Shown: positions 10,116-62,235 of the stretch, in pieces | Layout of the letters: each line of letters begins with the position of its first letter | How positions within the stretch are numbered: the stretch's first letter is position 1 | Virus record (IMG/VR): IMGVR_UViG_3300027418_000370 | Source: a virus | Length of the DNA stretch: 64,000 nucleotides | Reading direction: 5' to 3' (one strand) | Notes under the pieces: model-generated | Databases searched by the model: none | What the model was told of the DNA's origin: nothing | The model's input: only the letters and a program-made list of their open reading frames with translations | Translations under genes and position numbers: made by a program

Positions 10116-11723
10116 ATGGAATTAAATTCTCTATTAAACGAGTCAGCTCAAGGCTTCAAGAGCTTACAAGCTGACGCAACTCGTTTAGCTGATAAGTGGT
10201 CTGCTACAGGCTTACTTGAGGGCTTAAACAACGAGATCGAGAAAAATAGCATGGCTATGATCCTCGAAAACCAAGCTAAGCAGCTTGTAAACGAAATGAA
10301 CTCTACTGGTGGCGGTGCTATCGGTACTGCTACAGCTAACGCTGAGCAATGGGCTGGTGTTGCTTTACCACTTGTGCGTAAAGTATTCGCTCAGATCTCT
10401 GCTAAAGATTTCGTTTCTGTTCAACCAATGAACCTTCCTTCTGGCCTAGTATTCTATCTTGACTTCAAGTATGGTAACGGTGTTAACGGTCGTACTCTAG
10501 GTGACAACCTTTACGGTAACGTTTCTACTGCTAACAGCAAAATGACTGTTGATCTAGAAGTTGCTGGTGGTCTTTACGGTGCTGGACAATTCGGTTACAC
10601 AATCAACCCAGTTGCTACTGCATCTCTAGCTATCACAGCTGGTACTGCTACTTCAGCTTCTGTTGGCTACCAAGATGGTGTTAACCCAAGCGACTATAAG
10701 ACTTACGCAATCACTTTTGCTCAAGCTATTGATACTAAAGGTGTTCGTGCTTTCCGTCTTTCTTCTGGCTCTGCCGCTTACGGTGCCGCTAGCGACATCA
10801 CAACTAACCCAGAATTCACTACTGTATCTGGTAACACAGTTACTTTCGTAGTTGCTGCTTCTGCGGTTACTGCTGCTAACTTAACTGACGCTGCTGCTGT
10901 ATTCCACCTTCAGCCATCTGACAACACTCGTGGTGATTTCGAATTCACTGACGGTGTAGGTGATACAACTCCAGTTATCCCTGAGATCAACGTATCTCTT
11001 GCTTCTGAAGCTATCGTTGCTAAGACTCGTAAGTTAAAAGCACAATGGTCTCCAGAATTCGCTCAAGATCTTAACGCTTACCACAGCATCGACGCTGAGG
11101 CTGAGTTAACTTCTCTTCTTTCTGAGTATATCTCTATGGAAATCGATCTCGAGATCCTTGATATGCTTATCCAAGATGCAGTTACTACTGAGAAGTGGTC
11201 TGCTGAGAACAACAAGATCTGGGCTAACGGTGCATGGCAGACTACTGCTGTAGCTGATTTCTACAACACTCAAGGTCAGTGGTTCCAAACTCTTGGTACT
11301 AAGATCCAGAAAGTGTCTAACAAGATCCACCAGAAGACTTTACGTGGCGGTGCAAACTTCCTAGTAGTTTCTCCTTCTGTTGCTACTATCCTTGAGTCAA
11401 TTCCTGGATATGCTGCCGAGACTAACGGTGACAAGATGGACTTCGCAATGGGTGTTCAGAAAGTAGGTTCACTTAACTCACGCTTCCGTGTTTATAAGAA
11501 CCCTTACATGACTGAGAACGTTATCCTTATGGGTTACAGAGGTAGCCAGTTCCTAGAGACAGGTGCTGTTTATGCTCCATATGTACCATTAATGATGACT
11601 CCATTAGTATACGATCCTAAGAACTTCACTCCAACGAAGGGTATTATGACTCGTTACGCTAAGAAGATGATCCGTCCTGAATTCTACGGTAAGATCTGGG
11701 TTTCTGACCTAGCTACTGTTTAA
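10116..11723 (+). CDS. gp23: Major capsid protein (T4 gp23-like)
   Basis: Motifs MILENQ, LPLVRKVF, VSVQPMNLPSGLVFYL, KTRKLKAQWSPEFAQDLNAYH, GAVYAPYVPL and GIMTRY. Confidence 0.96.
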   Translation: MELNSLLNESAQGFKSLQADATRLADKWSATGLLEGLNNEIEKNSMAMILENQAKQLVNEMNSTGGGAIGTATANAEQWAGVALPLVRKVFAQISAKDFVSVQPMNLPSGLVFYLDFKYGNGVNGRTLGDNLYGNVSTANSKMTVDLEVAGGLYGAGQFGYTINPVATASLAITAGTATSASVGYQDGVNPSDYKTYAITFAQAIDTKGVRAFRLSSGSAAYGAASDITTNPEFTTVSGNTVTFVVAASAVTAANLTDAAAVFHLQPSDNTRGDFEFTDGVGDTTPVIPEINVSLASEAIVAKTRKLKAQWSPEFAQDLNAYHSIDAEAELTSLLSEYISMEIDLEILDMLIQDAVTTEKWSAENNKIWANGAWQTTAVADFYNTQGQWFQTLGTKIQKVSNKIHQKTLRGGANFLVVSPSVATILESIPGYAAETNGDKMDFAMGVQKVGSLNSRFRVYKNPYMTENVILMGYRGSQFLETGAVYAPYVPLMMTPLVYDPKNFTPTKGIMTRYAKKMIRPEFYGKIWVSDLATV

Positions 11724-11746
11724 TTCATCCTTACATAGGAAAATTT

Positions 11747-11775
11747 GAGGGGGCCTTCGGGCCCCTTCTTTTTTT
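11747..11775 (+). terminator. Rho-independent terminator with cUUCGg tetraloop
   Basis: GAGGGGGCC-TTCG-GGCCCCTTC followed by T7. Confidence 0.9.
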
Positions 11776-11796
11776 ATCGTATATTAGTTATAAATC

Positions 11797-11804
11797 TATT
11801 TATA
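11797..11804 (+). promoter_or_regulatory. TATTTATA putative late promoter motif
   Basis: Between the terminator and phoH. Confidence 0.6.
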
Positions 11805-11829
11805 CAATATAAACCAACGTTACGAATAT

Positions 11830-12516: not shown

Positions 12517-12528
12517 AAGCAGAGTTAC

Positions 12529-12536
12529 TATTTATA
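12529..12536 (+). promoter_or_regulatory. TATTTATA putative late promoter motif
   Basis: Intergenic, upstream of ATG 12551. Confidence 0.6.
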
Positions 12537-12550
12537 TATAAACTCGAACT

Positions 12551-13693
12551 ATGGCTGATATCGCAATCTGGGAAGGCTCATCTCAATTTCAAGCCGGACA
12601 GACTCCATTCGCATTCTATGACACAGATGCTGACTTTATAGCTGATGCTGATAAGGTAGCTAAGTTTTGTGCACAGAGATTGGGGTATCCATTGATGGAT
12701 GTAGAACTACAATCTGGTTCTATCTATGCTTGCTTTGAAGAAGCAGTAACCACTTACGGTAACGAAGTATTTCAGTACAAGATTAGAGAGAATTACCTAT
12801 CTATGGAGGGTGATTCATCAGCTACATCGTATAATAGTAAGTTAATAGAAGGATCTTTAGGGAGAGTTATTGAAATTGCTGAAAATTACGGTACAGAAGC
12901 AGAAGTAGGAGGTAATGTTACTAAATACTCAGGATCTATCACAGTAACTGCCGGCACTCAGAGTTACGATTTAGATGCCTGGGCTACTGCACAAGGAATC
13001 ACCGGAGGAATTGAGATTAGAAAGGTATTTTACGAGTCTCCACCGGCGATCTTACGTTATTTTGACCCATATGCAGGTACTGGTACAGGTATTCAGTCAT
13101 TAATGGACGCTTTTGACTTTGGATCATACAGTCCAGGTGTAAACTTCCTGTTAATGCCTGCTTCTTACGACATTTTAAAGGTTCAAGCCATCGAATTTAA
13201 CGATCAGATCAGAAGATCGGCATATTCCTTTGAAGTAGTCAATAATCAGCTTAAATTATTCCCTGTACCTAAGCAAGACGGTGCTATGTGGTTCGAATAC
13301 TACAAGAAAAGCGACAAAAAAGGTGCAGTTAAGGATAGTTCCTCTGGATTAATTACCAATGTAGGTGAGGTACCTTATGATAATGTTACTTATAGCACTG
13401 TAAACTCAGTAGGAAGACAGTGGATCTACCGTTATACGTTAGCTCTTACTAAAGAACTCCTAGGATACATTAGAGGTAAGTACCAACAGATACCTGTACC
13501 GGGTTCAAACACAGGATTAAACCAAGCAGACCTGCTTACAGATGCAAGATCTGAGAAGATATCCTTACTTACTGAGCTAAGAGAGATGTTAGACCAAACG
13601 TCTAAGAAGGCTCAACTAGAAAGAAAGGCTGACGAATCAGATAATCTTAAGAGAATCACTACTCAAGTACCAATGACAATCTTTATAGGATGA
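12551..13693 (+). CDS. Neck/head-tail adaptor protein (T4 gp13-like)
   Basis: RLGYPLMDVEL, WIYRYTLALTKELLGYIRGKY and C-terminal PMTIFIG are typical of gp13-like neck proteins. Confidence 0.8.
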   Translation: MADIAIWEGSSQFQAGQTPFAFYDTDADFIADADKVAKFCAQRLGYPLMDVELQSGSIYACFEEAVTTYGNEVFQYKIRENYLSMEGDSSATSYNSKLIEGSLGRVIEIAENYGTEAEVGGNVTKYSGSITVTAGTQSYDLDAWATAQGITGGIEIRKVFYESPPAILRYFDPYAGTGTGIQSLMDAFDFGSYSPGVNFLLMPASYDILKVQAIEFNDQIRRSAYSFEVVNNQLKLFPVPKQDGAMWFEYYKKSDKKGAVKDSSSGLITNVGEVPYDNVTYSTVNSVGRQWIYRYTLALTKELLGYIRGKYQQIPVPGSNTGLNQADLLTDARSEKISLLTELREMLDQTSKKAQLERKADESDNLKRITTQVPMTIFIG

Positions 13694-15728: not shown

Positions 15729-15986
15729 ATGGCACGAGTTCACCTATCACAACTAAACCCTTCTGGTTCGCTAAATATCACAGGTAGCTTTAGCGTAGCT
15801 GGTCAATCTGTATTCTATCAGACCGATAGTACAATAGCAGCATTAATAGTATCAGGAGCCATGGAGATTGTTAAATCTACTCTAGCAGCACAAGCTGTTT
15901 CTGGTTCACTTTCGATTCAAGGCCTCGGCACTCTTGCAGATACTGGATCAAGAGAGACCATCGATCTCGGTACAGATGACTTTTAA
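15729..15986 (+). CDS. Small virion protein, SGS/TGS-rich
   Basis: 85 aa with PSGSL, ITGSF and VSGSL; followed by a terminator. Confidence 0.6.
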   Translation: MARVHLSQLNPSGSLNITGSFSVAGQSVFYQTDSTIAALIVSGAMEIVKSTLAAQAVSGSLSIQGLGTLADTGSRETIDLGTDDF

Positions 15987-16091: not shown

Positions 16092-17924
16092 ATGGCTCAA
16101 ACATTAAGACTGAAGCGATCCTCCGTTCCAGGAAGAGTGCCAACCACGGCCACTCTGCAGACTGGTGAGATCGCGATAAATACAGCCGACGGCTTAGTGT
16201 ACATCCGTAAGGATGACGACACTATTATTCCGTTATTGGGAGCCAATACAACCATCACCGGATCAATCACTTTACTAGGTAGCGTAGAAGCAACATCATT
16301 TACTGGATCCTTCTCAGGATCAGCTGAAGGGCTTAGAGGAGTAGTATTAGATTACTCTGCATCTGCTGGTGACGGTATGCTAGCCTTTACGTACAACGGG
16401 TCTGCCGATGCTATTATTAGCTTAGATACAGGATCGAATCATTTTGTTAACGCTGTAGTCGACTTAATCGGTACTACCCCACCGAATATTATAGCTCAAG
16501 ATACAACTGGAGCAGGAGGTATAGATTTATCTTATAACTCAACCACAGGAGTACTTAGCGGTTCACTTCTCTACTCAGACATACAGCTGGGTTCTACCTC
16601 TATACAACTTGGTAACTCTGCTGCTTCAGTAACAAACTTTAATCTCGAGAATACAAAATCTACCGGATCCTTCTCAGGATCATTTGTAGGAGACCTTACC
16701 GGTACCTTATCAACCTCTGCTTCAGCAGGACCGGGTATACTGCCGTTTACTTTTGATGGTACGTCCAACGCAACTGTTGGAATCGATTCAGCTTCGTATG
16801 AATTTAGGAAAGCAGTACACGATTCAATTATAATCGTGGATACTTATACCTCATCAGGTATTAATTTAGAGTTTAATGAGATAGGTCAGAGCTTCTACTT
16901 ATCTGCACACCTACAGAGTCCGTTTATGACCGTAGGTAGCTCGTACTTACAACTATCAGGTATTTACGAAAGCCTTAGCGATTTAACCTTAATTAACACT
17001 ACCGCATCAGGATCATTTACAGGATCGTTCACCGGTAATTTAGAAGGTACTTCTAGCTGGGCAGAAAATGCAGCAACAGCTTCTTCAGCTGACGATTTTC
17101 TAGTAAGAGGAGATCTAAATGTAAATGGTACTGTAACAGCGAGAGAATTTCATACAACGTTTGTTTCTGCTTCAATAGTATACTCTTCCGGTTCAACAAA
17201 ATTCGGTGATACAGCAGATGATATACATCAATTTACAGGTTCTGTAACTGTTGACGGAAACACCAAATCAGATGACGTTACAATTAACGACTGGGGATCA
17301 ATATCTGCTTCTCTCTCTAGTATCTCTACTAGTGCATCCGGTCAAACGTTACAGCAGGTAACTACTAATGGAAACTCTACTACTTTAGTAATTAGTGCTT
17401 CTAATTTAAACATTACAGACTTTCCAGATGTATCTGCTTCTTTAGCTAGTTTAGGAAACTACAACCTGCAGAACATCACAGATAAAGGAAACTCTACTAC
17501 TTTAGTAATTAGTGCTTCTAATTTAAATATTACAGGATTTCCTGATGTATCTGCTTCTCTAGCAGACCTATACGGTACTTCAGCGAGCTTTGCAAGCGAG
17601 TTAACTCTCGTATCTGCAACAGCTTCAGCAGCATATAATTTTACATTACAGGATATCACAGATAATGGAAACAGTACTACCTTAGTAGTATCAGCTTCCA
17701 ACTTAAATATCACAGGCTTCCCAGACGTTTCTGCTTCTTTAGCAGCAATAAGCGGCAGTACCGTAACTGCAAATGCACTAACGTTACAGGAAGTAACTGA
17801 CAATGGAAACCAGACAACAAATCACGTATCAATCAGCAGTAGCTTAAACGTACAAGATTCTATATACTCTAAAGGAGAGGAAGTATTAGATTTTGCAGTA
17901 GCTATGGCAATAGCATTAGGATAA
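16092..17924 (+). CDS. Fibre protein (610 aa)
   Basis: N-terminus LKRSSVPGRVP...LQTGEIAINTADG resembles fibre anchor domains. GSFSGSF repeats; C-terminal FAVAMAIALG. Confidence 0.7.
   Translation: MAQTLRLKRSSVPGRVPTTATLQTGEIAINTADGLVYIRKDDDTIIPLLGANTTITGSITLLGSVEATSFTGSFSGSAEGLRGVVLDYSASAGDGMLAFTYNGSADAIISLDTGSNHFVNAVVDLIGTTPPNIIAQDTTGAGGIDLSYNSTTGVLSGSLLYSDIQLGSTSIQLGNSAASVTNFNLENTKSTGSFSGSFVGDLTGTLSTSASAGPGILPFTFDGTSNATVGIDSASYEFRKAVHDSIIIVDTYTSSGINLEFNEIGQSFYLSAHLQSPFMTVGSSYLQLSGIYESLSDLTLINTTASGSFTGSFTGNLEGTSSWAENAATASSADDFLVRGDLNVNGTVTAREFHTTFVSASIVYSSGSTKFGDTADDIHQFTGSVTVDGNTKSDDVTINDWGSISASLSSISTSASGQTLQQVTTNGNSTTLVISASNLNITDFPDVSASLASLGNYNLQNITDKGNSTTLVISASNLNITGFPDVSASLADLYGTSASFASELTLVSATASAAYNFTLQDITDNGNSTTLVVSASNLNITGFPDVSASLAAISGSTVTANALTLQEVTDNGNQTTNHVSISSSLNVQDSIYSKGEEVLDFAVAMAIALG
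17349..17820 (+). repeat. Three full plus one partial intragenic repeats (LQxxTxxGNSTTLVxSASNLNITxFPDVSASL)
   Basis: About 40 nt are identical between the copies near 17370 and 17487; a diverged third copy starts near 17667. Confidence 0.85.
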
Positions 17925-18260: not shown

Positions 18261-21200
18261 ATGAGCAATAAAACGTACATAGGTTTACATCCTAACAACC
18301 TTAACCGTACAGAGTACGGGCAAGTCGTTCTCTACGTTGAAGGAGAACCGGTTGCCTTTTTCTCCGGATCTCAGGATGTTATAATTAGCGGAAGCCTTGC
18401 TATTGAAGGTATTACAAACGTATCTGCTTCTATTGCAGCAGCATTAAGTCTGGATACCGGTAGCTTTATGATCACAGGCTCTGTAAACAACGATACTATT
18501 ACGTTTACTCAAGGAGACGGCACTACATTTGATATTATTATCACTAGTGTTACATCTTCTATAAGTGCATCATTTGCTCAAAATACATTAAGCGCATCTT
18601 ATGCTGCGACAGCATCGTCTGCTGATGCATTTTTAGTAAGACAGGACCTTACAGTACAAGGAATAGTAACAGCTAAGGAGTTTCATACAGAATTTGTAAG
18701 TGCATCAATTATTTATCAGTCTGGCTCTACTAAATTTGGCGATACTTCAGACGATACTCATGCATTCACAGGATCAGTAACTGTAACAGAAACCATATCA
18801 TCTTCAGACGCATACATTAACGACTGGGGATCGATATCAGCTTCTTTATCTACTATTCAAGATGCATCAAGCGGTATATCACTAGAACAAGCAGCTGCTA
18901 TTGGTAATACAATCACAGGTTCGAGCATCGGTATTGGAACAAGCTCTCCAACTAATACTCTACATGTAGCAGCTAACAGTGATTACCCTGTTAAGATACA
19001 GTCTTTAAATCTTACAGGAGATCCCTACCTAGAAGTAGGCGGTCAATCATTAAGAATTATCGACCCAGACGGAGGTATTTTCAGTATATGGTTTGACAGT
19101 AACTCAGGAGCATCCCCAACTAGAATAATAACTTTTGGAGAAAATTCCTTTAACGTTACAGGCAGTGTTTCTGTAGGTCAAGATCTTAGCATTGGAACAA
19201 TTACAAACGCTACAGTAGACACAGATAAATTCTTAGTATCTAACGGAGGTACTGTTGAATATAGAACAGGAGCACAGTTAGCTTCTGATATTGGAGCACA
19301 GATCGCAGTTCCTACTCTAGCACAGGTACTATCCTCAGGTAACACCTCTGCGCTAGGTATGTCCGTAGGACCTATCACAGGTTCAACACTTTCAATACAA
19401 GGACAGGGGCTAGTAAGTAGTAACTTTTTTGTAGGAAGTAGACTAAGCATTAACGTTGTAGATAACTACGGTACCGATCCTGACAAGTTTTTAGTAATAG
19501 ATACTACAGGTAGTGTAAAGTATAGAACAGGAGCTCAAGTACGCTCGGATATCGGTGCAATTGGCTCTGGAGATCCTACACTAGATTCTGTAACAGATAA
19601 CGGCAGTATCACCACTAACAGTATACAGGTAGGAACCATCAGTGGATCTGACTTAAGACTGAGTAACGTACTGCAGAGCGGACTTGATACAGATAAATTT
19701 CTAGTACACGGCAGTACAGGTGATGTACTTTACAGAACAGGAGCTCAAGTACTATCAGATATTGGTGCAGCCAGCTCTACATTAAACTTACAGCAAGTTA
19801 CTGTAAACGGAAACTCTACAAGCACAGCTATTACAGCTTCTGCTCTACGTATCAACGGTTCGGGAGAGTTTACCGGTAACCTAACTGTAGGAGGAACTAT
19901 AACAGCGCAGGAATTTCATACAGAGTATGTAACCGCTGCAGTGATATACGAATCCGGTTCAACAAAATTCGGTGACACTGTTGATGATACACATACCTTC
20001 ACCGGGTCTCTTAATGTACTGGGTAACCTAGATTCAACAGATTCGTATATTGACGATTGGGGGTCTATTTCTGCTTCTTTAGCAAGCCTATCCTCTTCAG
20101 CAACACCTAGTACCTTTGACGGAGATAGGCCAATCACACAACCTTTACTTCCTACCTTAGTTAACTATAATCCAGGTACTACCACAGTCTCTCAATTCCT
20201 TGAGCAGGTATTCTACCCAGATCCAGGCTTTGGTATTGAGATCTTAACTAACGAACCTTTCTATATCTTAGAAAGTGAATTAAGCGGTTCTCATGTTAGA
20301 GGAGCTACTACAACTAATACTCCCGTAGGTAACTACTACAATGTATTTGAATCAGCATCATTTACAGCTAATACGTCAGTAACATGGTCCATACAGACTA
20401 ACTCAGTATTAGATATTGAACCTCTAACAGGTAAGCTCTTTATTAAGATTAATCTTAGCGGTAGTGCTACATACCAAGCACCTAAAGTTATTTCAGGTAC
20501 AGTAACAGCAAATGCTACTTCTGGAGGATATAAGACAAGAGACTTTACAGTAACCGTACTTGACAATACAGGTCCAACCATTAGTACATCAGATATAACT
20601 AACTATTCCCCAAAAGCAGCTAGCTTTGTTACTGCTTCTGGTGCTTATATTGGAGAAGTTTACATTAACGAACAAGCAGATCCTGCAGGACCTCCTACTA
20701 TTCATACATTTGGGGGAACTAATCCTTCTTTCTTCTCTTCTTCTCTGTATAATCAACTTGCAGGAGTAAGTTACTACAAGATCTATACTACTCAAGCTCT
20801 AAACAGTGGAAGCTACGTACTAAACTTTACCGGCAGTGACCTATACGGCAACGAAGCATCAGCCTCTTCTACATTAGTAATTGATGCTAACACAGCACCA
20901 GTCTTAACAGTGTTCTTACCATTTAGTGGGCAGATACAAAACTACTCATCAGGGTCTATCTACGGCAGTATTACTGTAACAGATAACGCTGGTGATGCTA
21001 TTGATACATTTACTCTGTCAGGACCTGATGCCAGTTACTTTGCAGTAAATAGAATATCTTCCAATATGGGAGGACTGAGTGCTAGAGGTCAAGGATCAGG
21101 AACAGGTAATGAGAAGTGGGCTGTTAACTTTAATACAACACCTCCATTTACAGGTACATACAATATTACAGCTTCTGCAACAGATAATTTTGCATTCACA

Positions 21201-24200
21201 GGATCTTTAGCAATTCCTAACACACTATCTGCTACTACTCCTTCACTGCCTTCTCCTAACGGTACATTCTATGTTATAGAAAGTGCATTAACTGGAGCTA
21301 GTGTAACTACAGCAACAAGCGGAATTGCAGGAACAGTAGCCACAATGACTACTAACCAGCCCGTTAGCTGGTCCTTATCAGATGACTTAAGTGGAAAGCT
21401 AGCAATCTCAGGTAGTGCAGTTGGGTACATTACTCTAAAAGATAATCTAAGTGGCTCAGCCTACCAAAATGGTAGCGTACTCTCAGGAGTAGTAAGAGCT
21501 ACTAACACCTACGGTCTCTATAAAGAGAATAATATAAGTGTAACTATAACAGATAACGTTGGAGCATCGATCTCTCCGAATTTAAGCTTCCTTAACAACT
21601 ACTACACTAAAGATGGAGCAGCAGGCTTTGGAAACATCTTAGTTTTTGATCCTCAATCAATTGAAAACGTACAACTTGTAGGTATTGGCGGCCCCGATGG
21701 GGATAAATTTATATTCGTAAGCCAGTCAGCAGGACAGAGTGTACTGTATCCATTCTCTTCTTCTCAAGCTTTAAATAGCGGAAGCTATATAGTAGGAGTT
21801 ACAGCTAGCGACTCTTACGGACAATTTACCTCTCAAAGCTTTACAGTATCGGTCTTTGCTAATAATCCTCCAGTCATTGGACTATATAGTGGATCCTCCA
21901 CAGTTACATCCTATCAACCGGACATTGCTCAAGCAGTTTCTGGATCTACGTTAGGTTACGTACAAGTTAACGATGGAGATAGCGGAATAGACGGCATCGC
22001 ATCCTTCAACTTTACCGGTACTGATGCTGCTAAATTTGATGCTGTACCTAACGGACAGGTTGGAAACGAGTACGTATATCTTATCAAGACTGCAGAAAGC
22101 CTAACATCAGGTACATATAATCTAACAGGATCAGCTGTAGATGGATTTGGATTCACAACAATTAAACCTATCCCGGTAACAGCTACAGTACAGGCTCCTT
22201 CTATTCCTGACTCAAACGATCCATTTTACATCATCGAAAGTGCTGTAAGTGGCGCTTTTGTATACAATAGTACCACCGGATTCTCAGGCACACAAGCACA
22301 GTTTACAACAAACCAAGCTGTAACATGGAGCTTAACAAATGGAACATATTTAGCTATTGATTCTAACGGTAAGTTATCAGCTAAAGTACACATCAGCGGC
22401 TCTGCCAAGCAGGCTGGTAATACAATTACCGATGAAGTAGTAGCAACTAACACCTTTGGTGCTTCTAGATCTCTTCCCTTTAGTGTGGCAGTAGTAGATG
22501 ATTTAGATCCTGTTATTACGAATACTTTAGCAGGTAAAAATAATAATAAAACTACTACAGCTACAGGCTTTGGAACCATCACAATTTCTGATCCGCAATC
22601 TCTGGGCAACGTTTCGTTAACAGACTTTAACGGACCAGACGTAGGTAGCTTTACATTCTCAGCAGGAACTGCAGGCTCTACCAGAGTGTATACAGTTTCC
22701 TCTTCTGCAGCATTAAACAGCGGAAGCTACTCATTTAGTGTTACCGGTAGTGATGCTTACAATCAAATTGCTAAAGCAGCATTTACTATTGCAGTAGCTG
22801 AAAACCTACCTCCTACAGTTAGCTTAACAGGTTTTACTAAGGATGTATCTGATGCTGAAAACAATGAAGTAATCGGATCTGCTTCAATCGCTGATCCTCA
22901 AGATGATAGCATTGTATCCTTCACATTATCCGGTACTGATGCTAGTAAGTTTTCTGCTTCACTAGCAAGCTCTACAGCCACCACAGCACTGTATGCAGTA
23001 CATACAACACAGAATCTAACATCAGGATCTTATAACCTAACAGGTTCTGCTACAGATTCATTCGGACTTACAACAGTTACTCCAATCCCAGTTAATATTA
23101 CTTTAGCAGCACCGGACGTACCTATTAAAAATGCCGTTAACTTCTATATTATTGAAAGTGCACTCAGCGCCTCTCAGGTGGTAGTTAATAGTGACGGATA
23201 TACCGGAGTACAAGCCGATATGAATACTAACCAAGATGTAACCTGGAGTATTAAATCACCTAGTACGTACTTAGCCATCGATAGTAATGGAGGATTATCA
23301 GTTAAAGCTAATATCAGCGGTTCTGCTAAGAACGCCTCAGGTGCTCCTTATAACTTAATTCAGGAGTACGTTGTAGCTACCAACGCTTACGGGGTATCTT
23401 CTGAAGTACTGGTACCAGTTCAAGTTACTGCTAATGCAGCTCCTACCTTATCTTACACAGGTTTATCAGTAGTATCAGGATCGGCAAACGTAGGAAATAC
23501 TGTAGGTACAGTAACAGCCACAGACCCACAATCTCTTGATTCAATCCTATCTATTACTATAACAGGAGGAGCTAACTCTGGCAGTTTTGCATTAGTACAG
23601 ACAGGAGCTACATCTTACACTAAGACCTATAATATTAATGTAGATGGAGCAGGATTAGGAGCTGGAAGCTATGAAGTAGAACTTACTGCTAGAGATAGTT
23701 TCAATAAAACAACAACAGAAACTAAAACAGTTACCGTGCAAAGTACAGGAACAACACCAGTCTACATCTATATTAATACAATTAATAGATCTAACCTCGA
23801 TAATACAGAGGCGCAAGCACTTGCAGCTATCGGAGCTCAATTCTACGAACAGTACGACTATGCGAACCCGGACTATCCGTTAGCTGAATGGATTGCTGGT
23901 AATATCGGAGATCCAATCACAGTATCGGGGCAAGGTACAGCAACACCGAAAACAGACGGTACTGTAGCAGACCTATTAGAAATTAAGACATTAGGAACTA
24001 TAACACAAGATGCAGCCGGTAGCCAACCTCTATTCCTATTCCCATCTTCTTCTGCACTCCCAAGCTTACCTAACACAATGTACTTAGGATCAGACTTCAG
24101 TACTATGCCTGCAGGACAGCATGCATTAATCACTTATGCAACCACACCACCTGCTGTAACAACAGCCGGAGTGTTATATTTTACTACAGATGTAGCAGTA

Positions 24201-51100: not shown

Positions 51101-53761
51101 AATGTAGGAGTTGGAACTATTTCTCCTCAAGCTAGATTCCATGTATCCGGCAGCATACTTGCCGGTGATATTACAGGAGCACAGACTTCAAACAATATCA
51201 CCATTTACCACGGCGGCGGTAACCTTACCGACGGAACAGTTCGTTCTTACTTTGAACTCACTAATCCTTCTGCTCCGTATACAAACACCGGCGATGCCTG
51301 GAACTGGAAACTAGCAACAGTTGCAAGACCGGGTAATAGCGGTAACTATAACAGCCAACTTGAAATTCTCAGATCTACTAGAGATACTGTTACTAACGAC
51401 CCTACAGTAGTATTTAATAGAAACGGTAATGTAGGTATTGGAACTACTGATCCTAAACGGATGTTACACGTAGAAAGCGGATCTATGCTCTTCTCTAGAG
51501 CACTAGGAGATGCAGACTACGATGCTATTAATATCGCTTACAGAGGATCTTGGAGTAGTTATACAAACAAGTTAGCTGGTATTAACGTTACCGATAGCAA
51601 TGCACTAAACCAGACAGTAGGTAGATTCGGTGTAACATACAACGGAAGCGTCGGAGTATTCACTGTTACGGACCTCTATAATGGAGGGTATGCAGCATCA
51701 GGAGACGTATTTAGAGCGGGAGGAAACGGAGTAATCAGCTTCCCTCAATACGGAGCAGGATATTTAAAAACAGATGCTAACGGAGCAATTTCAACAACAA
51801 CCCAGTTTACTGGATCTTTCCTAGGAAACGTAGACGGTAACGTAACCGGAACAGCCGGAAGTGAAACTCTAGCAACAGTAACCGGCAGAGGTAATATCAC
51901 TACCAGTAATATAGGCATCGGAGTAACTACTGCTCCGGTTAATCTCACTATTGGAAAGAATACAGCTGGTTCGACCGGATTCTTAGACTATATCAAAATT
52001 GGTTCGGATCTTCCTAGCTTTGGTGCTCAAGGAGGGTACCCGTCTTTACTAATCGGTACATTCGGTGTATATGATGCTTCAATAGCTACACAAGGTAATG
52101 ATTTAAGAATTCTAGCAGGTCGCGGTGTTAATACTGAAGACCATAACATACGATTCTATACTAGCTTTAACGGTACTGGAGGAGCCGCCGAAGACAATGA
52201 GCGGATGCGCATTACCCATACTGGTAACATAGGTATTGGAGTCACTAGCCCAGCTGCTAAGCTGGATGTAAGAGCAGGATCAGGCTTTATAAGACTTGGT
52301 TCCTACAATGATAATTATCATGTAAAAATCGAAGGAGGAGATCAGCTAAACTTCCGTAATGGAGCTTCCGCTGCTGTAGCGTATATTCAATACGCCGGTC
52401 CTGCAGATACCCTACTGGGACGTAACCTTTATGTAGAAGGAAATTCAAGCGGCGGTACAACAGGTGCTGTAAGAGTACAATCAGATGGTAACGTAGGTAT
52501 TGGTAATACTAGTCCGGGTTATAAATTAGATGTAAATGGAACAGGTAGGATTGTTAGTCAATTTATTCAAGGAGGTGGTACCGCTAGAGCTACAAGCGGA
52601 ACAACAATCGCATTTACACATAATACGGCTTATTCGGCAAATACAGACCTTCTTGATGCAGGTAGGTTCTTGTCAATAGTAAATGAATCAACTGTAACAA
52701 ACGCATATTCTGCTCTATCGTTTAGAGTTAACCCAAACAGCTCTGGCGGAGGAACCAATGCAATGCTTGATATGAAATTCGTGAATGCGAATAATGGTTC
52801 AAGCAACTTAATTTGGAGCTTCACATCAGGTGGTGGTTGGGCTGATAGAATGACTCTAACAAGTAATGGAAACTTAGGCATCGGTTCAACAGCTCCTGAA
52901 GGTAAACTCAACGTAGTTGGTGGAGCCGATGTTCTAATAGTAGAAGGATCAGGCTCTACAGCCAACACTACTATCATGGCCGTTGATGGAAATAACGGTA
53001 GATTATTTGAGGTAAGCGATGATCTAAGTGATTCCTTATTCAGTGTAAATACTATAGCCGGTCTACCGGTTATGGAAGCGTTTGCTGATAATACAGTAGT
53101 ATTAGGAGCTTATAATCAATGTGATTTAGTAATCTCAGGAAGTAAAGTAGGTATCGGTACTTGCAGTCCAGCAACTAAGCTTCATGTTCAAGGAGGTGCT
53201 GCAATGACCGGCGGATGGAATAAAAATATTACTCTAGCAGCTACATACCCTGTAGCTATATTTAACAGTAATAATAGCAAATACGCAGGTATAGGCTACG
53301 ATTACTCAGTAGACGGTATCCGCATCTGGACAAACGCTACAAGTAACGACGTTAACGGCACAGGATCTGAAAGATTATCAATAATAGCCGGTAATGTAGG
53401 TATCGGCTCAGGCACACCAGCCTACAAACTAGACGTAACCGGAACCATCCGTGCAACCGGTGATGTAATCGCCTATTCAGATGCTAGAGTAAAAGAAAAC
53501 GTAGTAACGCTAGAAAATTCTCTAGAAAAAGTACAGAATCTACGAGGAGTTTCGTATAATAAGATAGGAGAGTCTGAGAAGAAGATCGGTGTTATAGCAC
53601 AGGAAGTACTAGAAGTACTACCAGAAGTAGTATCTCAGGACTCTGAAGGAACTTATTCAGTTGCTTACGGTAACATTACAGCTATATTGATTGAAGCAAT
53701 CAAAGAACAGCAAAAGCAGATCGATGAATTGAAAGAAGAAATTAAAAAACTCAAAGGTTAA
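42119..53761 (+). CDS. Giant fibre protein (3880 aa) with fibrinogen-like insert and C-terminal S74 chaperone
   Basis: About 25 GNVGIG repeats by eye; N-terminus paralogous to the 31788 gene; AY|SDARVKENV...IGVIAQE at 53477 onward. Confidence 0.85.
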   Translation: MADIRIIPSIGAINVTGSAEFRGTAGTSLLYLSGSGLIGVGTTDPQSELHVVSSGTRFVTLDRSGTRSYDLGVNSSGTFLLTDNTEAADRIAISLSGSVGIGTTQPVEQLNVVGDVRFGNSSDYVRFSTENSNAKIELVDNNQSNPPTIYGNGPYMEFHNGGAQRIRLNSNGTVQFNAYGSGTNTGSAAYSLTVDSSGNIIESTLATVNGSGTANYIPKWSDSDTLTNSVIYETGGVIGIGITTPATRLALGSTQGSGIDFLYDTTNNYKNQIKNYWNSSTDTRMDFNIGRNSGVTPVTVMSVGYGGNVGIGSTAPEGKLNVVGSADVLIVEGSGSTANTTIMAVDGNNGRLFEVSDDLSDSLFSVNTIAGLPVMEAFADNRVVLGAYNQYDLYITGSRVGIGTSAPEAPLHILGNFDANNPKQLVIASREDAGSVYSGIQFERAGGGTFFGLGNDSRTDRDEIFVGGGFGSVTNATAFRVFTGAYGSTVGTERLSILSNGYVGIGTTSPGFKLDVRTGNQGDIASFRGTGYPITFATTGSAGNYYGTQMMMAADSGSTQAAFRLNTRYNSAVGSGVAFTIESSTNDQSYGQNPSALTYSEKFRITQDGNVGIGTASPGYKLQVNGNAKFDSDVYFYNTVLDPASNFATQRGAGFKASTGKFEVASSETALELSRFSTTGPVLSIRHSGSQVSHLDTDGGATFTGDVSIGGDLTVDGIITAKEFHTTFVSASIIYQSGSTQFGDSFDDTHTFRGGVEIIESNTVPTLTLTRDVSGTTYTYGQFTNAGSDFYVNSLAAIFINADSNSDSTSTDRIIKFGNRGSELMQLDASGNLGIGTTSPADLLHIDEGDIRINDGNNGTVRGLYIRHAGITGNVTSLVQDTSGSPRAHLKSSERSLWISAQSDGGGVSTETLRLYNNQNLGLAVDYSGSVGIGTTNPSTILHVYRGGTGTVYDLTLQSGDDSTGARHGILFRGGAANYEALIRTGNYGSYRSNLEFWVSNQTSGGSTLVQALSILSAGDVRLNEYGSGTVTGTAAYNLSVDSTGKIIETANPSLTGTGTANYVTKWSGTNSLTNSVIYDTGTNVGIGNTSPYTKFEVRGTIHSEVGASTIPQILLGSPGLNYGQIQNDGTGIWSLGYGATNAALGTPVLAWNSSGNVGIGITTPGAKLHVVGDISGSSEIRAQRGFFNPQYDDIYGLRVEPPNSGDKAVIYVNRGYGSHKGSGIYIVGANYTNNNNQAFVELNAGSYSGIDTRYIHAYDSAGTDFVVYGDGTVVAGKYQLTDNAAKHPSSSFQSPQEIIAAGLDEGNGLYYINPGGKLAAPIQVYVDFTTPDAQGETGWMLVASFTTDYTWGLDSTSTAAVLGSTAVNAFSANFGNYVVNDFRVHAAPSVDSGGTNSSGDWYYHRKEGVEWKKWWSEANSGLYPRSTAINPSVRDGLIGFDYSHNIKFNYTNTAHKSNGLSDAPGSVAYWDVLTTAGNTMSIQSLASDGTLGWSHNLTNTGQDIVSQHSIVGYDDGNIVARYGDAFDTADVGNGSGGTSETTKLWLWVKGKTVRGGWTDGDGYVYTEDTGSNVGIGTRAPADKLHVQATSGNGLTIITNDVSTIKMKSSTGGTKSWGFATTNLAASDFGIYQSDSNGGDPISAGTAKLYFKSDGNVGIGTTSPDATIHVYSTADTSGMVGNFRRGINGLNEYTYIKVGNSAPAYFGNMLLSDDVAYISRAADPTGGNGLFVQGSGNVGIGTKSPSQRLHVYGGYIKASDDGTTTAFMQGGGSNGYAYFGALGNGPAAFGNSENWTTLVADGGNVGIGSTAPNKKFVVTGAANDEWIATFTNSGTTPYGVYVDTSANSGTAYSFAVYTNAGNGLFVRNNGNVGVGTSSPASGIKLDVSGSVSVAGDEGLRLGYVGDHGAYDNVKITYSGYNGGSPEVIFTPRTTPGSGELTTFFRFKNSNGTASNNNLASVSVDNDLEVGGDLTVDGIITAKEFHTTFVSASIIYQSGSTKFGNSSDDIHYFTGNIGVNVSDPQAPLEVKGASNTPADGNEVISVTNTTGNTKLLLGVAENSYGWIQAAEGSSDRNILLNPNGGHTIVGATSKLSAYGADFTTLSVQTQTGDNAAIIELGGNRTANPGNQNGMIQFFNKTGTATEVNRISSIQGSDVTSGSISFHTNYGGTFSEKVRISDNGDVGIGTDSPKTKLAVADDAPNSTLTAGNAVLDVYGTAATARTDNSSLDILRLHRNNDATPSKASTFAIGLSFHEDPGNNYPRTRADFKTTGRTTDDSDVALTVMSVVDTGRIGVGTTDPTNRITAYQGGGVRVSGIASGGYIEMSGDLPGYSANQYPVIKSGGTIHFANNNKYSAYIEGANTYFGLLDSTTTTKVLLRTSGNSYLNGGNVGIGIAAPGYKLEVAGDARVQSNTFLATDANSYVNIGASYVSTTTASDTKLILQGKNVTDAGTNYYGDFGQILLWSNSNYSASSRRFLITNAHKINQFAIIRSDDATTTPTIGQGGLVSNGTADFIIDYYSGAVGIGQTNPAYKLHVEGDTGIGANYAFKARYTTSDNYHGSFRWAGLQLGNNGTNRIVAGRTGVGGSLDFWVNNTNDASDYSVTPDGTRVLTLYSTGTAGFTGGVSAASFTGSLQGNITGTAASETLATVVARGNSTSTNIRVQRPSNKVDNNGNPTEFGSRVEFNNAFATNESGYMIFRFPTYNNFLISGDYDGNIGGAIPNIQFGRQSTVYMHINSSDGNVGIGTTAPDSTLHVHSSSPIITVSNSDTSIIDGQVIGQVDFKSFDGSTNMTNVFGSIRTEAQGTLDNGVDDGGKMVFSTFKQSTTLVDQMVIDREGNVGIGNTTPTSTLEVGGQVLISATAPLLDFVDTNSFTDTNDRFRVRAGGNEGLIQWYDNSASSLLSIMTFQPNGDVIVPNGNVGIGVTDPERKLEVKSDTTYDGILIDTLSAPEIVLRDRGNSDTLIGTGRHGLDDFHIDTYAGNAFFIKGSSRNVGVGTISPQARFHVSGSILAGDITGAQTSNNITIYHGGGNLTDGTVRSYFELTNPSAPYTNTGDAWNWKLATVARPGNSGNYNSQLEILRSTRDTVTNDPTVVFNRNGNVGIGTTDPKRMLHVESGSMLFSRALGDADYDAINIAYRGSWSSYTNKLAGINVTDSNALNQTVGRFGVTYNGSVGVFTVTDLYNGGYAASGDVFRAGGNGVISFPQYGAGYLKTDANGAISTTTQFTGSFLGNVDGNVTGTAGSETLATVTGRGNITTSNIGIGVTTAPVNLTIGKNTAGSTGFLDYIKIGSDLPSFGAQGGYPSLLIGTFGVYDASIATQGNDLRILAGRGVNTEDHNIRFYTSFNGTGGAAEDNERMRITHTGNIGIGVTSPAAKLDVRAGSGFIRLGSYNDNYHVKIEGGDQLNFRNGASAAVAYIQYAGPADTLLGRNLYVEGNSSGGTTGAVRVQSDGNVGIGNTSPGYKLDVNGTGRIVSQFIQGGGTARATSGTTIAFTHNTAYSANTDLLDAGRFLSIVNESTVTNAYSALSFRVNPNSSGGGTNAMLDMKFVNANNGSSNLIWSFTSGGGWADRMTLTSNGNLGIGSTAPEGKLNVVGGADVLIVEGSGSTANTTIMAVDGNNGRLFEVSDDLSDSLFSVNTIAGLPVMEAFADNTVVLGAYNQCDLVISGSKVGIGTCSPATKLHVQGGAAMTGGWNKNITLAATYPVAIFNSNNSKYAGIGYDYSVDGIRIWTNATSNDVNGTGSERLSIIAGNVGIGSGTPAYKLDVTGTIRATGDVIAYSDARVKENVVTLENSLEKVQNLRGVSYNKIGESEKKIGVIAQEVLEVLPEVVSQDSEGTYSVAYGNITAILIEAIKEQQKQIDELKEEIKKLKG

Positions 53762-58695: not shown

Positions 58696-58697
58696 CA

Positions 58698-58705
58698 TAT
58701 TTATA
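58698..58705 (+). promoter_or_regulatory. TATTTATA putative late promoter motif
   Basis: Upstream of ATG 58716. Confidence 0.6.
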
Positions 58706-58715
58706 CTAAAACACC

Positions 58716-59069: not shown

Positions 59070-59082
59070 GGAAAAATACATA

Positions 59083-59090
59083 TATTTATA
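59083..59090 (+). promoter_or_regulatory. TATTTATA putative late promoter motif
   Basis: Upstream of ATG 59124. Confidence 0.6.
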
Positions 59091-59123
59091 TATAACTAAC
59101 CGGTTAAATTAAAATAACGTTAC

Positions 59124-59411: not shown

Positions 59412-59437
59412 GCGCACAACGCACTCCAGGGAAGATT

Positions 59438-59460
59438 AAGAGGGTTTCGGCCCTCTTTTT
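59438..59460 (+). terminator. Rho-independent terminator (UUCG loop)
   Basis: AAGAGGGT-TTCG-GCCCTCTT followed by Ts. Confidence 0.85.
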
Positions 59461-59461
59461 C

Positions 59462-59469
59462 TATTTATA
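59462..59469 (+). promoter_or_regulatory. TATTTATA putative late promoter motif
   Basis: Immediately after the terminator; upstream of ATG 59488. Confidence 0.6.
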
Positions 59470-59487
59470 TAAAAATCTCACATACAC

Positions 59488-60444
59488 ATGGCTTTAGAAG
59501 ATAAAAAATCGTTATTACAGCCTAGCTCTGTACAATCCCAGCAGTATAGATTACAATACTCTGGTCTACAGGATAGAGCTAACGAAGCTGTTAAGTATAC
59601 CGCTCCTGCTGCTAATACTCCTAGAGTATCTCAGTTTGTAGGCACAGTACCATCTGTAGCATTAGCAGCACCAACACCTCAACCTGTTGGATCCTCTACT
59701 ATAGCTAAGAACTATCGAGCATCAGCTGCAGTATTAGACGGAGATACGTATCTTACTGCTTCTATTGGAAGTGATGTAGATCTTAATACGGTAACCAGCG
59801 GTTCATTAAGCCTAGTGTTTATGATTAAGCCGGATACAGTACCTACAGCACAGAAGCAGTACCTATTCCATGCTTATACCGGATCATTTGCCAGCCACTC
59901 TTTAGAAGTAACATTAAGTGGTTATAATCTAGAGATTAGAGGCACAAACGACGGTAAGTACTCAAGATACTACGCAACTATCCCTGCAACAGCCTGGGGT
60001 ACTCAAGAAAACGGGTATACTATTATTGAGATCGGTAAAAATGCTCAAACAGCTGACAGACCATCAGTACCGTTAGGCTTTGCAAGATATTACGCTAAGG
60101 TAGGTAATACTTCTTATAGCTTAATCGCAAGAGGTAACGGAATAGTTACTTCTCATGACCTATCACTAATAGACCACCTAAGCATCGGCGGTACAGCTGC
60201 AGTTGCTAACTCTAACTTCTCAGGATCGATTGCATTTGCAATGATTAAAGGAGACACTCGCTTAACAGCCGACCAATACATTGATCTAAAAGACGGAAAG
60301 AAGTTAGTAGGTTCAATTATTCCACAAGTAAGAGCTTATACTTTCGATAGTAACGGAGCTGTAGAAGATCCAGGTACATTAGCTGATGTTAACGTAACTT
60401 TAGGAGTAACTGGAAGCTATTCCACAACTACAGGATACTATTAA
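59488..60444 (+). CDS. Virion protein with probable LamG-like beta-sandwich
   Basis: LDGDTYL, SLVFMIKP, LSIGG...NFSGSIA after a P/S/Q-rich N-terminus. Confidence 0.55.
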   Translation: MALEDKKSLLQPSSVQSQQYRLQYSGLQDRANEAVKYTAPAANTPRVSQFVGTVPSVALAAPTPQPVGSSTIAKNYRASAAVLDGDTYLTASIGSDVDLNTVTSGSLSLVFMIKPDTVPTAQKQYLFHAYTGSFASHSLEVTLSGYNLEIRGTNDGKYSRYYATIPATAWGTQENGYTIIEIGKNAQTADRPSVPLGFARYYAKVGNTSYSLIARGNGIVTSHDLSLIDHLSIGGTAAVANSNFSGSIAFAMIKGDTRLTADQYIDLKDGKKLVGSIIPQVRAYTFDSNGAVEDPGTLADVNVTLGVTGSYSTTTGYY

Positions 60445-60466
60445 TTGTTTTTGCACTTCATTAACA

Positions 60467-60474
60467 TATTTATA
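60467..60474 (+). promoter_or_regulatory. TATTTATA putative late promoter motif
   Basis: Upstream of the sheath ATG at 60502. Confidence 0.6.
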
Positions 60475-60501
60475 TAAAGAATAATATAACCCTTCATAAA
60501 G

Positions 60502-62235
60502 ATGGCAGAGAGAATTTTATCACCAGGTGTATTTTCAAGAGAAAATGACCTATCTTTCATCACCCCAGCTGCTGGCGAGATCTCTACGGCTTTAGTAGGA
60601 CCTACAACTAAAGGTCCTGTTAATATTCCTACTGTAGTTAGATCTTTAGGCGAGTACCTAAATGTATTTGGCGGCACTTTCAAATCAGGTAGTGACTACT
60701 ACAACCACTTTACTACAATCGCAGCTGAAAAGTACTTCGAACAAGGAGGTTCTTCTCTCTTAGTTACTAGAGTATCTGATGATACTTTCTCTAGTGCTAC
60801 TGCTACAGTATATAGTGCTTCTGCTGCATGGTTTACCTTAAAGACTCTAAGTCAAGGTGAGATCATGAACAACAGCGGTAGCGGTACATTAGCAGGAGCT
60901 GACAATGCTCTTGTTTCTGGTTCAGCCGACAACGTAAGATGGGAAATTACTAACGTAGATGCAGCACAGGGTACTGTTTCTCTTGTTATCAGAAGAGGTG
61001 ACGACAACGAAAAGAACAAAATCGTTCTAGAGTCTTATTCTAACCTTTCTTTAGATCCTAAATCTGCTAACTACATCGCCAAAGTAATCGGCGATCAATA
61101 TAAGACAGTTAGCGGTGTTGATGGAGCTGTAACAGTAAACGGTGAGTATGCAAACTCTTCTAAATTCGTTTATGTAGATGCAGTAACATTCAAAACCCCG
61201 GACTACTTCGACAACACTGGAGCTGCTAAAGGAGCTTACTCTGCTTCATTTGAAGCGTTTGTAATCGGTAGCGGATCTGCTCACGGTACATTCGGTTCAG
61301 CAGAAGGAGTTTTATTCCAAGCCGGAGTTGCTGCAACATTTAATCAGAATATTGCTAGCGCAACAGACTCACAAGGTATCGATCCTTCTACTGCTTACGC
61401 TACAGCATTACTATCTCTTGCTAACAAAGACGAATATAAATTCAACGTACTGGTAACACCAGGTCTTACAAAAGATCTTAACTCTTCAGTAGTATCAAGC
61501 TTTATCAGCTTAGTAGAAGGAAGAGGAGATGCAATCTACGTTGTAGATGCTTATAAGTACGGAGGTTCAGTAGCCAATGCAGTATCTAGTGCTGCTGGTA
61601 TGAATAGCTCTTATGCAGCTGCTTACTGGCCATGGGTTAAAGTATCTGACAACCAGTTAGGAAAGAATACATGGGCTCCAGCTTCTGCAGTAATCGGAGG
61701 TGTTTATGCCTTCACTGATAGAGTAGGTGCTGAATGGTTCGCTCCTGCAGGTCTATTAAGAGGCGGTATTCCAGGTGTAGTAACAGCTGAAAGAAAGCTT
61801 TCTCAATCAGACAGAGACACATTATACGGAGGTAAAGTTAACCCACTTGCTACCTTCCCAGGTTCAGGTGTTGTAGCTTACGGTCAGAAGACATTACAGA
61901 CTAAAGCTTCTGCATTAGACAGAGTAAATGTTCGTAGACTTCTTATCAACCTTAAGAACTTCATCGGTGATCAAGCTAACAACTTAGTATTCGAGCAGAA
62001 CACAATCGCTACTCGTAACAGATTCTTAGCCGCCACTAACCCATATCTTGAGACTGTAGTACAGCGTCAAGGACTTTACGCTTACAGAGTTGTAATGGAT
62101 GACACCAACAACACTGCTGACGTTATCGATAGAAACCAATTAGTAGGTCAGATCTTTATCCAACCAACTAAGACTGCGGAATTCATCGTACTCGACTTCG
62201 TTGTTCAGCCAACAGGTGCAACATTTGGAGCGTAA
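60502..62235 (+). CDS. gp18: Tail sheath protein (gp18-like)
   Basis: SPGVFSRENDLS, GPTTKGP, YWPWV, WFAPAG..RG, GQKTLQ, RVNVRRLL, FEQN and PTKTAEFI. Confidence 0.96.
   Translation: MAERILSPGVFSRENDLSFITPAAGEISTALVGPTTKGPVNIPTVVRSLGEYLNVFGGTFKSGSDYYNHFTTIAAEKYFEQGGSSLLVTRVSDDTFSSATATVYSASAAWFTLKTLSQGEIMNNSGSGTLAGADNALVSGSADNVRWEITNVDAAQGTVSLVIRRGDDNEKNKIVLESYSNLSLDPKSANYIAKVIGDQYKTVSGVDGAVTVNGEYANSSKFVYVDAVTFKTPDYFDNTGAAKGAYSASFEAFVIGSGSAHGTFGSAEGVLFQAGVAATFNQNIASATDSQGIDPSTAYATALLSLANKDEYKFNVLVTPGLTKDLNSSVVSSFISLVEGRGDAIYVVDAYKYGGSVANAVSSAAGMNSSYAAAYWPWVKVSDNQLGKNTWAPASAVIGGVYAFTDRVGAEWFAPAGLLRGGIPGVVTAERKLSQSDRDTLYGGKVNPLATFPGSGVVAYGQKTLQTKASALDRVNVRRLLINLKNFIGDQANNLVFEQNTIATRNRFLAATNPYLETVVQRQGLYAYRVVMDDTNNTADVIDRNQLVGQIFIQPTKTAEFIVLDFVVQPTGATFGA

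Follow-up and report, generated by a model that had tools for sequence, protein, structure and literature searches.

In chloroviruses, the capsid is glycosylated by soluble virus-encoded glycosyltransferases (GTs) and methyltransferases, and the glycans are N-linked at atypical Asn sites. The autotransporter heptosyltransferases (TibC/TibA, Aah/AIDA-I) modify Ser in the cytoplasm on the strand-turn-strand of a beta-helical surface protein, and GtfA/GtfB places O-GlcNAc on serine-rich-repeat adhesins. For mycobacteriophages, virion glycosylation by phage-encoded glycosyltransferases is attributed to a 2023 study by Freeman et al., cited in PMC12619734. According to the latter, the sugars of these phages are carried at the C-terminal ends of the capsid and tail-tube subunits. 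Here we analyze a short tripeptide, [ST]-[GA]-S, in the proteins of a 64,000-nucleotide stretch (the window) of the IMG/VR virus record IMGVR_UViG_3300027418_000370. A preliminary description of this DNA had proposed the tripeptide as a virion-wide sequon for a phage modification such as O-glycosylation.

The excess of [ST][GA]S is real and specific in the fibres, in an 85-amino-acid (aa) protein and in a 318-aa protein, and local composition, DNA repeats and homologous repeats alone cannot account for it. We favour, with slightly less than even confidence, the reading that its hydrophobically flanked form, phi-[ST]-[GA]-S-phi, is a structural small-residue turn or strand-junction motif without covalent modification. 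The window contains the late module of a T4-like myophage, an uncultured phage of Flavobacterium type. Its products include a capsid protein of gp23 type (Pfam E 1e-80), sheath, portal and TerL, six fibres, the longest 3880 aa, and a number of LamG proteins. The closest isolate by capsid is Flavobacterium phage vB_FspM_immuto (76% identity; immuto hereafter), a cultured relative with Flavobacterium sp. LMO8 as its host. Next in capsid kinship are Mel-JY01, two uncultured megaphages and Rhodothermus phage RM378. The features that carry the tripeptide, all on the plus strand, are as follows.

10116..11723, +, major capsid protein, gp23-type; 3 [ST][GA]S sites in an insertion, nt 10617-10772 (residues 168-219)
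12551..13693, +, neck/adaptor protein; 2 sites
15729..15986, +, 85-aa protein directly upstream of the first fibre; 4 sites (PSGSL, ITGSF, VSGSL, DTGSR)
16092..17924, +, 610-aa fibre; 28 sites
17097..17384, +, one copy of a shared fibre module, in the 610-aa fibre; EFHTxF..SAS..SGSTKFGD..DDxHxFTGS, from BLASTP among the window proteins
18261..24296, +, 2011-aa fibre with Ig-like repeats; 49 sites; Pfam Big_3_3 and Cadherin
24311..29152, +, 1613-aa fibre; 52 sites; F-SGS-F-SGS-F tandems and a 9-aa SAS-[YH]-A array
31788..40397, +, 2869-aa VGIGT-repeat fibre; 18 sites
42119..53761, +, 3880-aa VGIGT-repeat fibre; 31 sites, many immediately preceding a VGIGT unit
59488..60444, +, 318-aa LamG/LNS jellyroll protein; 5 sites, 4 with hydrophobic flanks
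60502..62235, +, tail sheath; 6 sites, all within residues 62-259; Pfam sheath domains at residues 303-568

Motif excess and sequence definition

Expected counts were taken from 1000 composition-preserving shuffles of each protein. The shuffles, a check named in the preliminary description, placed the three fibres of 610, 2011 and 1613 aa far above expectation, with 28 sites against 4.8 (z 11), 49 against 12.8 (z 10) and 52 against 9.6 (z 14), respectively; the first count agrees with an estimate by eye of about 30. SGS was the most over-represented tripeptide in these three fibres (54 vs 7.6). The excess persisted under shuffling inside blocks of 10-40 aa (p 0.001), which rules out local composition as the cause. 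The 129 sites comprise 83 distinct 9-mers and use both Ser codon families. This indicates selection on the protein and not DNA repeats, and repeats at the DNA level were rejected as a cause on the same grounds. The 85-aa protein (4 vs 0.7, p 0.006) and the 318-aa protein (5 vs 1.3, p 0.011) were also enriched. The excess was moderate in the 3880-aa fibre (31 vs 16.5, p 0.002) and marginal in the sheath (6 vs 1.9, p 0.008; 0.02 with block shuffles), and the plain tripeptide was not in excess in the 2869-aa fibre (18 vs 15.6).

All peptides quoted in the preliminary description were found at their places, together with three more: DTGSR (85-aa protein), LTASI (318-aa protein) and KSGSD (sheath, residue 62). 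Its statement that the tripeptide is nearly absent from TerL, portal, PhoH and the tube was confirmed, with 0 sites in each. The claim of a virion-wide distribution did not hold, as the 25 virion-module proteins that remain when the six fibres, the 85-aa and the 318-aa protein are set aside gave 18 sites against 13.9 when pooled (p 0.17), and the Thr version was, if anything, higher in the same pool. The neck protein, named as a carrier, has 2 sites against 0.8, which is not significant (p 0.18), and neither is shared with immuto. For the capsid protein, the three sites do cluster in the insertion and all three are common to immuto (76% overall identity), but the count is not significant (3 vs 1.2, p 0.12). 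Non-virion proteins of the same phage, obtained by the genome walk described below, showed no excess (23 vs 20.5). The beta barrel of a phage-encoded TonB-dependent receptor has 0 sites against 1.6 expected, and a general trait of beta-rich proteins was ruled out on that basis.

The proposed definition, with G or A only in the middle and Ser but not Thr at the end, was borne out. With [ST] first and S last, G was enriched 5.7-fold and A 3.8-fold in the middle position, S 1.1-fold, and the other residues at most about 1.5-fold, except for W (4 seen vs 0.8 expected). At the third position, SGS was enriched 7.1-fold and SGT stood at 0.9-fold, no enrichment being seen with T last; the mirror version of [ST][GA]S was not enriched either. 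Position -1 is occupied by I, F, V or L at 80 of the 129 sites (62%), and position +3 most commonly by F, Y or L. We therefore scored a flanked form, phi-[ST][GA]S-phi, with a hydrophobic residue on either side. The three fibres together hold 45 such sites against 2.4 expected (11 vs 0.43 in the 610-aa and 21 vs 0.82 in the 1613-aa fibre). Three VGIGT fibres summed gave 14 vs 2.8, the 2869-aa fibre showing a mild excess (5 vs 1.28) and the 3880-aa fibre 8 vs 1.37. The 318-aa protein has 4 vs 0.12 (p 8e-6), the 85-aa protein 2 vs 0.07, the sheath 1 vs 0.19 and the capsid protein 0. Short site-to-site spacings are even, with 4 and 6 common and 3 and 5 almost absent, a pattern that fits one face of a beta strand. 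The distinction from the Bacteroidota O-glycosylation sequon D-[ST]-[AILVMT] was also sustained: the phage motif does not show its pattern of Asp before and an aliphatic residue or Thr after the acceptor, since Asp stands at -1 in 8 of the 129 sites (1.1-fold) and the first Ser/Thr is followed by G or A only.

Structural settings of the motif and its spread among relatives

By sequence comparison, the fibres are related to each other, five of them through one module. This module of 55-100 aa carries SAS, SGS and TGS and is common to the fibres of 610, 2011, 1613, 2869 and 3880 aa (BLASTP) in seven copies, one each in the 610-, 1613- and 2869-aa and two each in the 2011- and 3880-aa fibres. Across 34 homologues, the SGS and TGS columns of the module show conservation of 90% or more or do not vary at all. 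Its patterns recur in at least 599 IMG/VR stretches. Neither Pfam nor PDB has a match for it, and the His and Asp residues that it conserves suggest that it serves as a metal-binding or trimer-knot junction domain. Together, the module and the recognizable repeats account for 59 of the 129 three-fibre sites. The repeats are the F-SGS-F-SGS-F tandems, the 9-aa SAS-[YH]-A array, the Ig-like motifs SGSY and T[GA]SD, which hold 10 sites of the 2011-aa fibre, and a 39-aa repeat. The view that the carriers are non-homologous holds only in part, as these five fibres are related. The other 70 sites alone still exceed the 27 expected for all three fibres.

The excess extends well beyond the window. In 120 database homologues of the 610-aa fibre, [ST][GA]S was found 2561 times against 494 expected (5.2-fold) and the Thr version 342 times against 418, and 78 fibre open reading frames from IMG/VR gave a 3.6-fold excess. 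A tblastn search with the fibre module and the N-terminal half of the 1613-aa fibre returned almost no isolates, Mel-JY01 and CRP-6 only. Two window fibres, of 610 and 1613 aa, were searched against PDB by sequence, the latter being the one VGIGT-linked fibre so searched. The 610-aa fibre had no match, and the 1613-aa fibre had only VGIGT-repeat matches, weak alignments to 8oml and 8ond, one of which reads ITGSGLVGIGT at the same place. For the site-rich segments, these searches gave no PDB relative. When the 610-aa fibre was modelled as a monomer with AlphaFold2 (AF2), confidence was low (pLDDT, a per-residue confidence score, of 51), and the site-rich stretches are unmodelled segments of low pLDDT. 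The 2869-aa and 3880-aa giant fibres (31788-40397 and 42119-53761) are composed of NVGIGT-type units, and the 3880-aa fibre has a Peptidase_S74 chaperone domain.

The 318-aa protein provides a view of the motif in a confidently predicted fold, a LamG/LNS jellyroll (ESM Atlas; Foldseek on the predicted model, E 6e-8). The model places the sites in hairpin loops or where strands begin. Among 17 representatives of the family (27-66% identity), Y-[ST]GS-F and F-SGS-I are among the few conserved positions, with Gly invariant in both and Ser133 invariant in the former, and F-SGS-I occupies the canonical LamG F-x-G-x-[IL] strand. A syntenic 101-aa protein of the IMG/VR genome G001, the counterpart of the 85-aa protein, has 6 sites against 0.5 in a six-residue phi-[ST]GS-x-x period. 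In the sheath, as had been described, the sites avoid the conserved C-terminal core: all six fall in residues 62-259 and none in 260-577. Five of the six are kept in 91-120 of 120 relatives (64-100% identity), and three SGS sites inside the variable region rank in the top 5-13% of conserved 3-mers there.

In immuto, the flanked form was below expectation in the non-structural proteins (1 vs 3.3 in 30.9 thousand residues) and strongly enriched in the baseplate proteins (15 vs 1.1) and in the fibres gp101 and gp102 (28 vs 1.1), with a 4-6-fold excess elsewhere in the virion. A 508-aa structural protein of Mel-JY01 has 14 sites against 3.2, and RM378 shows a weak excess that includes a 100-aa protein with 5 vs 0.5. 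G004, a clade member of 235 kb (87% complete), has seven motif-enriched proteins, two giant sheaths among them (8 vs 2.7 and 10 vs 2.2); these adjacent paralogues of 1155 and 1060 aa (L107:9302-15994, which is G004 189302-195994) are about twice the usual sheath size. No motif excess was found in 100 kb of LR756508 that include capsid, neck, two sheaths and tube (38 vs 31.7), and its two sheath paralogues, of 824 aa each, are without the motif. The T4 virion, including gp34-37, gp12 and gp18, has 12 [ST][GA]S sites against 20.3 and 0 flanked sites against 1.9, so a general trait of T4-type virions was ruled out.

A glycosyltransferase island in the same genome

From the window end, the genome was followed outward through seven exact-protein look-ups, the overlapping stretches agreeing at 100% DNA identity. 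The search of the rest of the genome for glycosyltransferases, suggested with the original proposal, revealed a 12-kb island of soluble enzymes 55.5 kb past the window end, with its start near window coordinate 119,551. Its core has the order GT4-GT4-GT2-GT2-GT10 and encodes a GT4 protein of 481 aa, a GT4-like protein of 420 aa, two GT2 proteins and a GT10 fucosyltransferase; there is also a weak GT11-like match. Further island genes specify a WbuC cupin, three methyltransferases, DegT and a GDP-mannose-dehydratase-type (gmd-type) epimerase. The island is syntenic with immuto gp181-gp169, and the Pfam annotations of its genes include no flippase or polymerase. Ten proteins, nine from the island and one neighbour, were scanned against Pfam and NCBIfam. 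No known protein-O-glycosyltransferase family was matched by the island proteins, and no BAHT-family enzyme was matched among the ten. The 481- and 420-aa proteins had no GtfA/GtfB NCBIfam match, the PDB hit to 4pqg being at E 0.074.

Homologues of the 481-aa glycosyltransferase among 50,697 phage records were restricted to immuto (68%), Mel-JY01 (41%), LR756508 (31.5%) and RM378 (26%), which are the closest relatives by capsid. Judged from these homology searches, this leading GT4 is confined to the present phage clade, and its ESM Atlas clusters are 96-100% viral. The best solved relative of both GT4 proteins is B736L of a chlorovirus (3oy2), a weak match (E 1e-3 and 0.07). Immuto DNA carries fdPreQ1 in place of G and is otherwise canonical in its bases (PMC10516641), which makes DNA an unlikely acceptor for sugars in that phage. 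The present genome has the full 7-deazaguanine set of FolE, QueD, QueE, QueC and a QueF-like protein together with a PF00551 formyltransferase (L007:13215-20219, L010:10001-14166), as does immuto, and the phage probably shares this DNA modification.

The glycosyltransferase and the motif occur together in the present phage, in immuto, in Mel-JY01 and in the IMG/VR genomes G001-G003; all three of the latter, at least 95% complete and in possession of the fibre module, carry both the glycosyltransferase and enriched fibres. RM378 has the glycosyltransferase and a weak motif excess, and T4 and LR756511 have neither. Two relatives are discordant. In the 235 kb of G004 (87% complete), where the motif is present, a search for homologues of GT1, GT2 and the island detected none. 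LR756508 has the glycosyltransferase (31.5% identity) but no motif excess in its 100-kb head-tail region. The co-occurrence across relatives, a further check named with the proposal, is thus suggestive but imperfect, with immuto, Mel-JY01, G001-G003 and RM378 on its side and these two against it. As the concordant positives are close kin, the association is also confounded by descent. The mid-size IMG/VR contigs are 18-44% fragments, in which lack of the glycosyltransferase is uninformative.

Between the window and the island lie genes for gp32, RecA, DnaB, RNR, queuosine and 7-deazaguanine synthesis, PolA and GroES/EL, as well as a TonB-dependent receptor, a protein with a type IX secretion system (T9SS) tail and a holin. 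The receptor (845 aa, Plug and beta barrel; L011:15441-17978) and the T9SS-tail protein (640 aa, Por_Secre_tail sorting domain; L011:19402-21324) lie about 34-40 kb past the window end and are outer-membrane or secreted proteins of host type, which a lytic T4-like phage would not usually carry. A gene located between that for the T9SS-tail protein and the lysis genes (L013:3467-4981) encodes a 504-aa product that belongs to no known family. This product has 12 [ST][GA]S sites against 4.4, 0 of them hydrophobically flanked, and may be one more protein of the virion or of the surface. HSP20, GroES and GroEL are phage-encoded (L010:17200-19924). In Mel-JY01 (PP395634.1, L015:4750-8430), a 1226-aa protein annotated as an FkbM methyltransferase, which also has a GT1 domain, directly follows the motif-rich 508-aa structural protein.

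Readings of the motif and comparison with known systems

In the structural reading, one large superfamily of aquatic-phage fibres would use the motif as a construction element of its repeat domains and beta-structured shafts. The first hydrophobic residue would close one strand, the three small residues (Ser/Thr, Gly/Ala, Ser) would form a tight corner or crossing point, and the second hydrophobic or aromatic residue would open the following strand. Module sharing and repeat amplification would have spread the motif across the fibres, and structural constraint would keep it there, with no covalent modification; the reason for the motif, we infer, is packing or turn geometry. This reading is suggested by the hydrophobic flanks, the even spacings, the tandem arrays and the deep positional conservation, by the placement of the LamG sites at strand ends, by the excess throughout the fibre family (2561 vs 494 in 120 homologues), by the limitation of the excess in the window to the fibres and two small proteins, and by G004. 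Several observations weigh against it. The preference for SGS (7.1-fold) over SGT (0.9-fold) clashes with the expected turn statistics, by which the third residue of a type II' turn could be Thr almost as readily as Ser. Gly and Ala are both enriched in the middle though they imply different backbone geometries. The motif is found in the monomeric LamG fold and in the sheath insertions as well, FNGPI and FTGEI stand in the position equivalent to F-SGS-I in two further LamG proteins of the window, the 70 fibre sites outside recognized repeats are in excess by themselves, and no excess is seen in the T4 fibres and the T4 virion, which are likewise rich in beta turns.

A lesser but substantial probability goes to the original proposal, read from sequence, that the motif is an O-glycosylation sequon and that outer tail proteins are modified in the cytoplasm by the phage's soluble glycosyltransferases. 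Glycan synthesis would be initiated by the GT4 pair at the Ser in third position, exposed on the turn between two strands, and the GT2, GT10 and GT11-like enzymes, the methyltransferases, the GDP-mannose dehydratase and the aminotransferase would extend it with fucose-type, amino and methylated sugars. The specificity of the motif is consistent with an enzyme target, as it is directional, requires Ser and not Thr, and accepts Gly and Ala alike. It sits at pre-existing turn positions of unrelated folds (fibres, LamG and, marginally, sheath insertions) and is not in excess in the non-virion proteins of this phage or in the T4 virion; the immuto contrast between the non-structural proteins and the enriched baseplate and fibres points the same way. 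The same genome also encodes an island of soluble glycosyltransferases with no known acceptor, whose 481-aa member is clade-restricted, nearly all viral in its clusters and, among solved structures, closest to the chlorovirus glycosyltransferase 3oy2 (E 1e-3). DNA is an unlikely acceptor in immuto (PMC10516641), and the three relatives that are at least 95% complete and have the fibre module all have the glycosyltransferase, T4 and LR756511 being without both. On the other side, capsid, tube, neck and most virion proteins of the window are not enriched, LR756508 and G004 break the association in opposite directions, and the phages that fit it are closely related. Matches to known protein-O-glycosyltransferase families are absent from the island proteins, the hydrophobic flanks may indicate sites partly buried in trimers, and the fibres are interrelated, with many sites at deeply conserved Gly-containing turn positions. 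The specificity, the several folds and the island thus speak for the proposal, and the narrow spread, the related fibres and the discordant relatives against it. The structural and the sequon readings are close and not mutually exclusive, as a structural turn could also be a presented acceptor, which is the case in autotransporter heptosylation.

It is improbable that the motif is some other recognition or processing mark, such as a site for a fibre-assembly chaperone, for GroEL/GroES binding, for phosphorylation or for acylation. The phage does encode GroES, GroEL and HSP20, the motif marks proteins that need assisted trimer assembly, and the Ser specificity suggests a role for the hydroxyl group, but no kinase, acyltransferase or dedicated fibre chaperone is linked to the motif, and we know of no chaperone motifs so short and dense. 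Chance or compositional bias in proteins rich in Ser, Thr, Gly and Ala, as the fibres are, suffices for capsid and neck but is refuted for the fibres, the 85-aa and the 318-aa proteins, given the z of 10-14 (whole-protein) and p of 0.001 (10-40-aa block shuffles) of the three fibres, the unenriched mirror and Thr versions and the 5.2-fold excess in 120 homologues, and it retains hardly any probability.

Should the serines be glycosylated, which we put forward tentatively from sequence, the Far-T4 clade (large aquatic T4-like phages, immuto included) would place a phage-made glycan on its fibres and other outer tail proteins. Taken jointly with that whole reading, and with the same reserve, the glycan would probably contain fucose and methyl sugars and sit on the last Ser of phi-[ST]-[GA]-S-phi turns, transferred by the phage-specific GT4 pair. 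The motif would then be the first defined virion O-glycosylation sequon in phages of Gram-negative bacteria, and phages of aquatic Gram-negative bacteria would possess a protein-glycosylation system of their own, its sequon legible in the sequence. This would matter for how hosts are recognized, for resistance against proteases and grazers, and for the question of why sugar islands with no known acceptor are found in large phages. If the motif is purely structural, it provides a sequence signature for a very large unannotated fibre family and a warning against taking short Ser motifs as sequons. The question is testable in immuto, which is in culture and has the same motif excess and the same glycosyltransferase pair. 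Our literature searches found no description of the motif.

Short over-represented peptides that mark structural repeats are known from trimeric fibres of phages and of Bdellovibrio, such as the VGIGT unit of mosaic adhesive trimer proteins (8oml, 8ond), and the phage motif resembles them in its periodicity within repeats and its positional conservation; yet 70 of the 129 sites are outside recognized repeats. Unlike the VGIGT peptides, [ST][GA]S is not tied to one repeat family: its contexts are many and unrelated (83 distinct 9-mers), and it is also present in a LamG fold. The phage resembles the GtfA/GtfB system in that two GT-B proteins are encoded in tandem and the candidate acceptors include serine repeats of SAS type. 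It differs in that its motif is scattered between hydrophobic residues and does not form long S-x dipeptide tracts, and in having no accessory Sec system. The acceptor geometry of autotransporter heptosylation would match the one proposed for phi-[ST]-G-S-phi; the sugar and the sequence context differ. As in chloroviruses, a cytoplasmic set of virus-encoded glycosyltransferases comes with methyltransferases and fucose-related enzymes, and B736L is the best, though weak, PDB match; the candidate acceptor here is Ser on fibres, in contrast with Asn on the chlorovirus capsid. The likeness to mycobacteriophages lies in soluble glycosyltransferases encoded by the phage and in the proposal that virion proteins, which assemble in the cytoplasm, are coated with sugar. 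Unlike in those phages, the tube here has 0 sites, the capsid has 3 internal ones that are not significant, and the motif signal lies in the fibres of a phage whose host belongs to the Gram-negative Bacteroidota.

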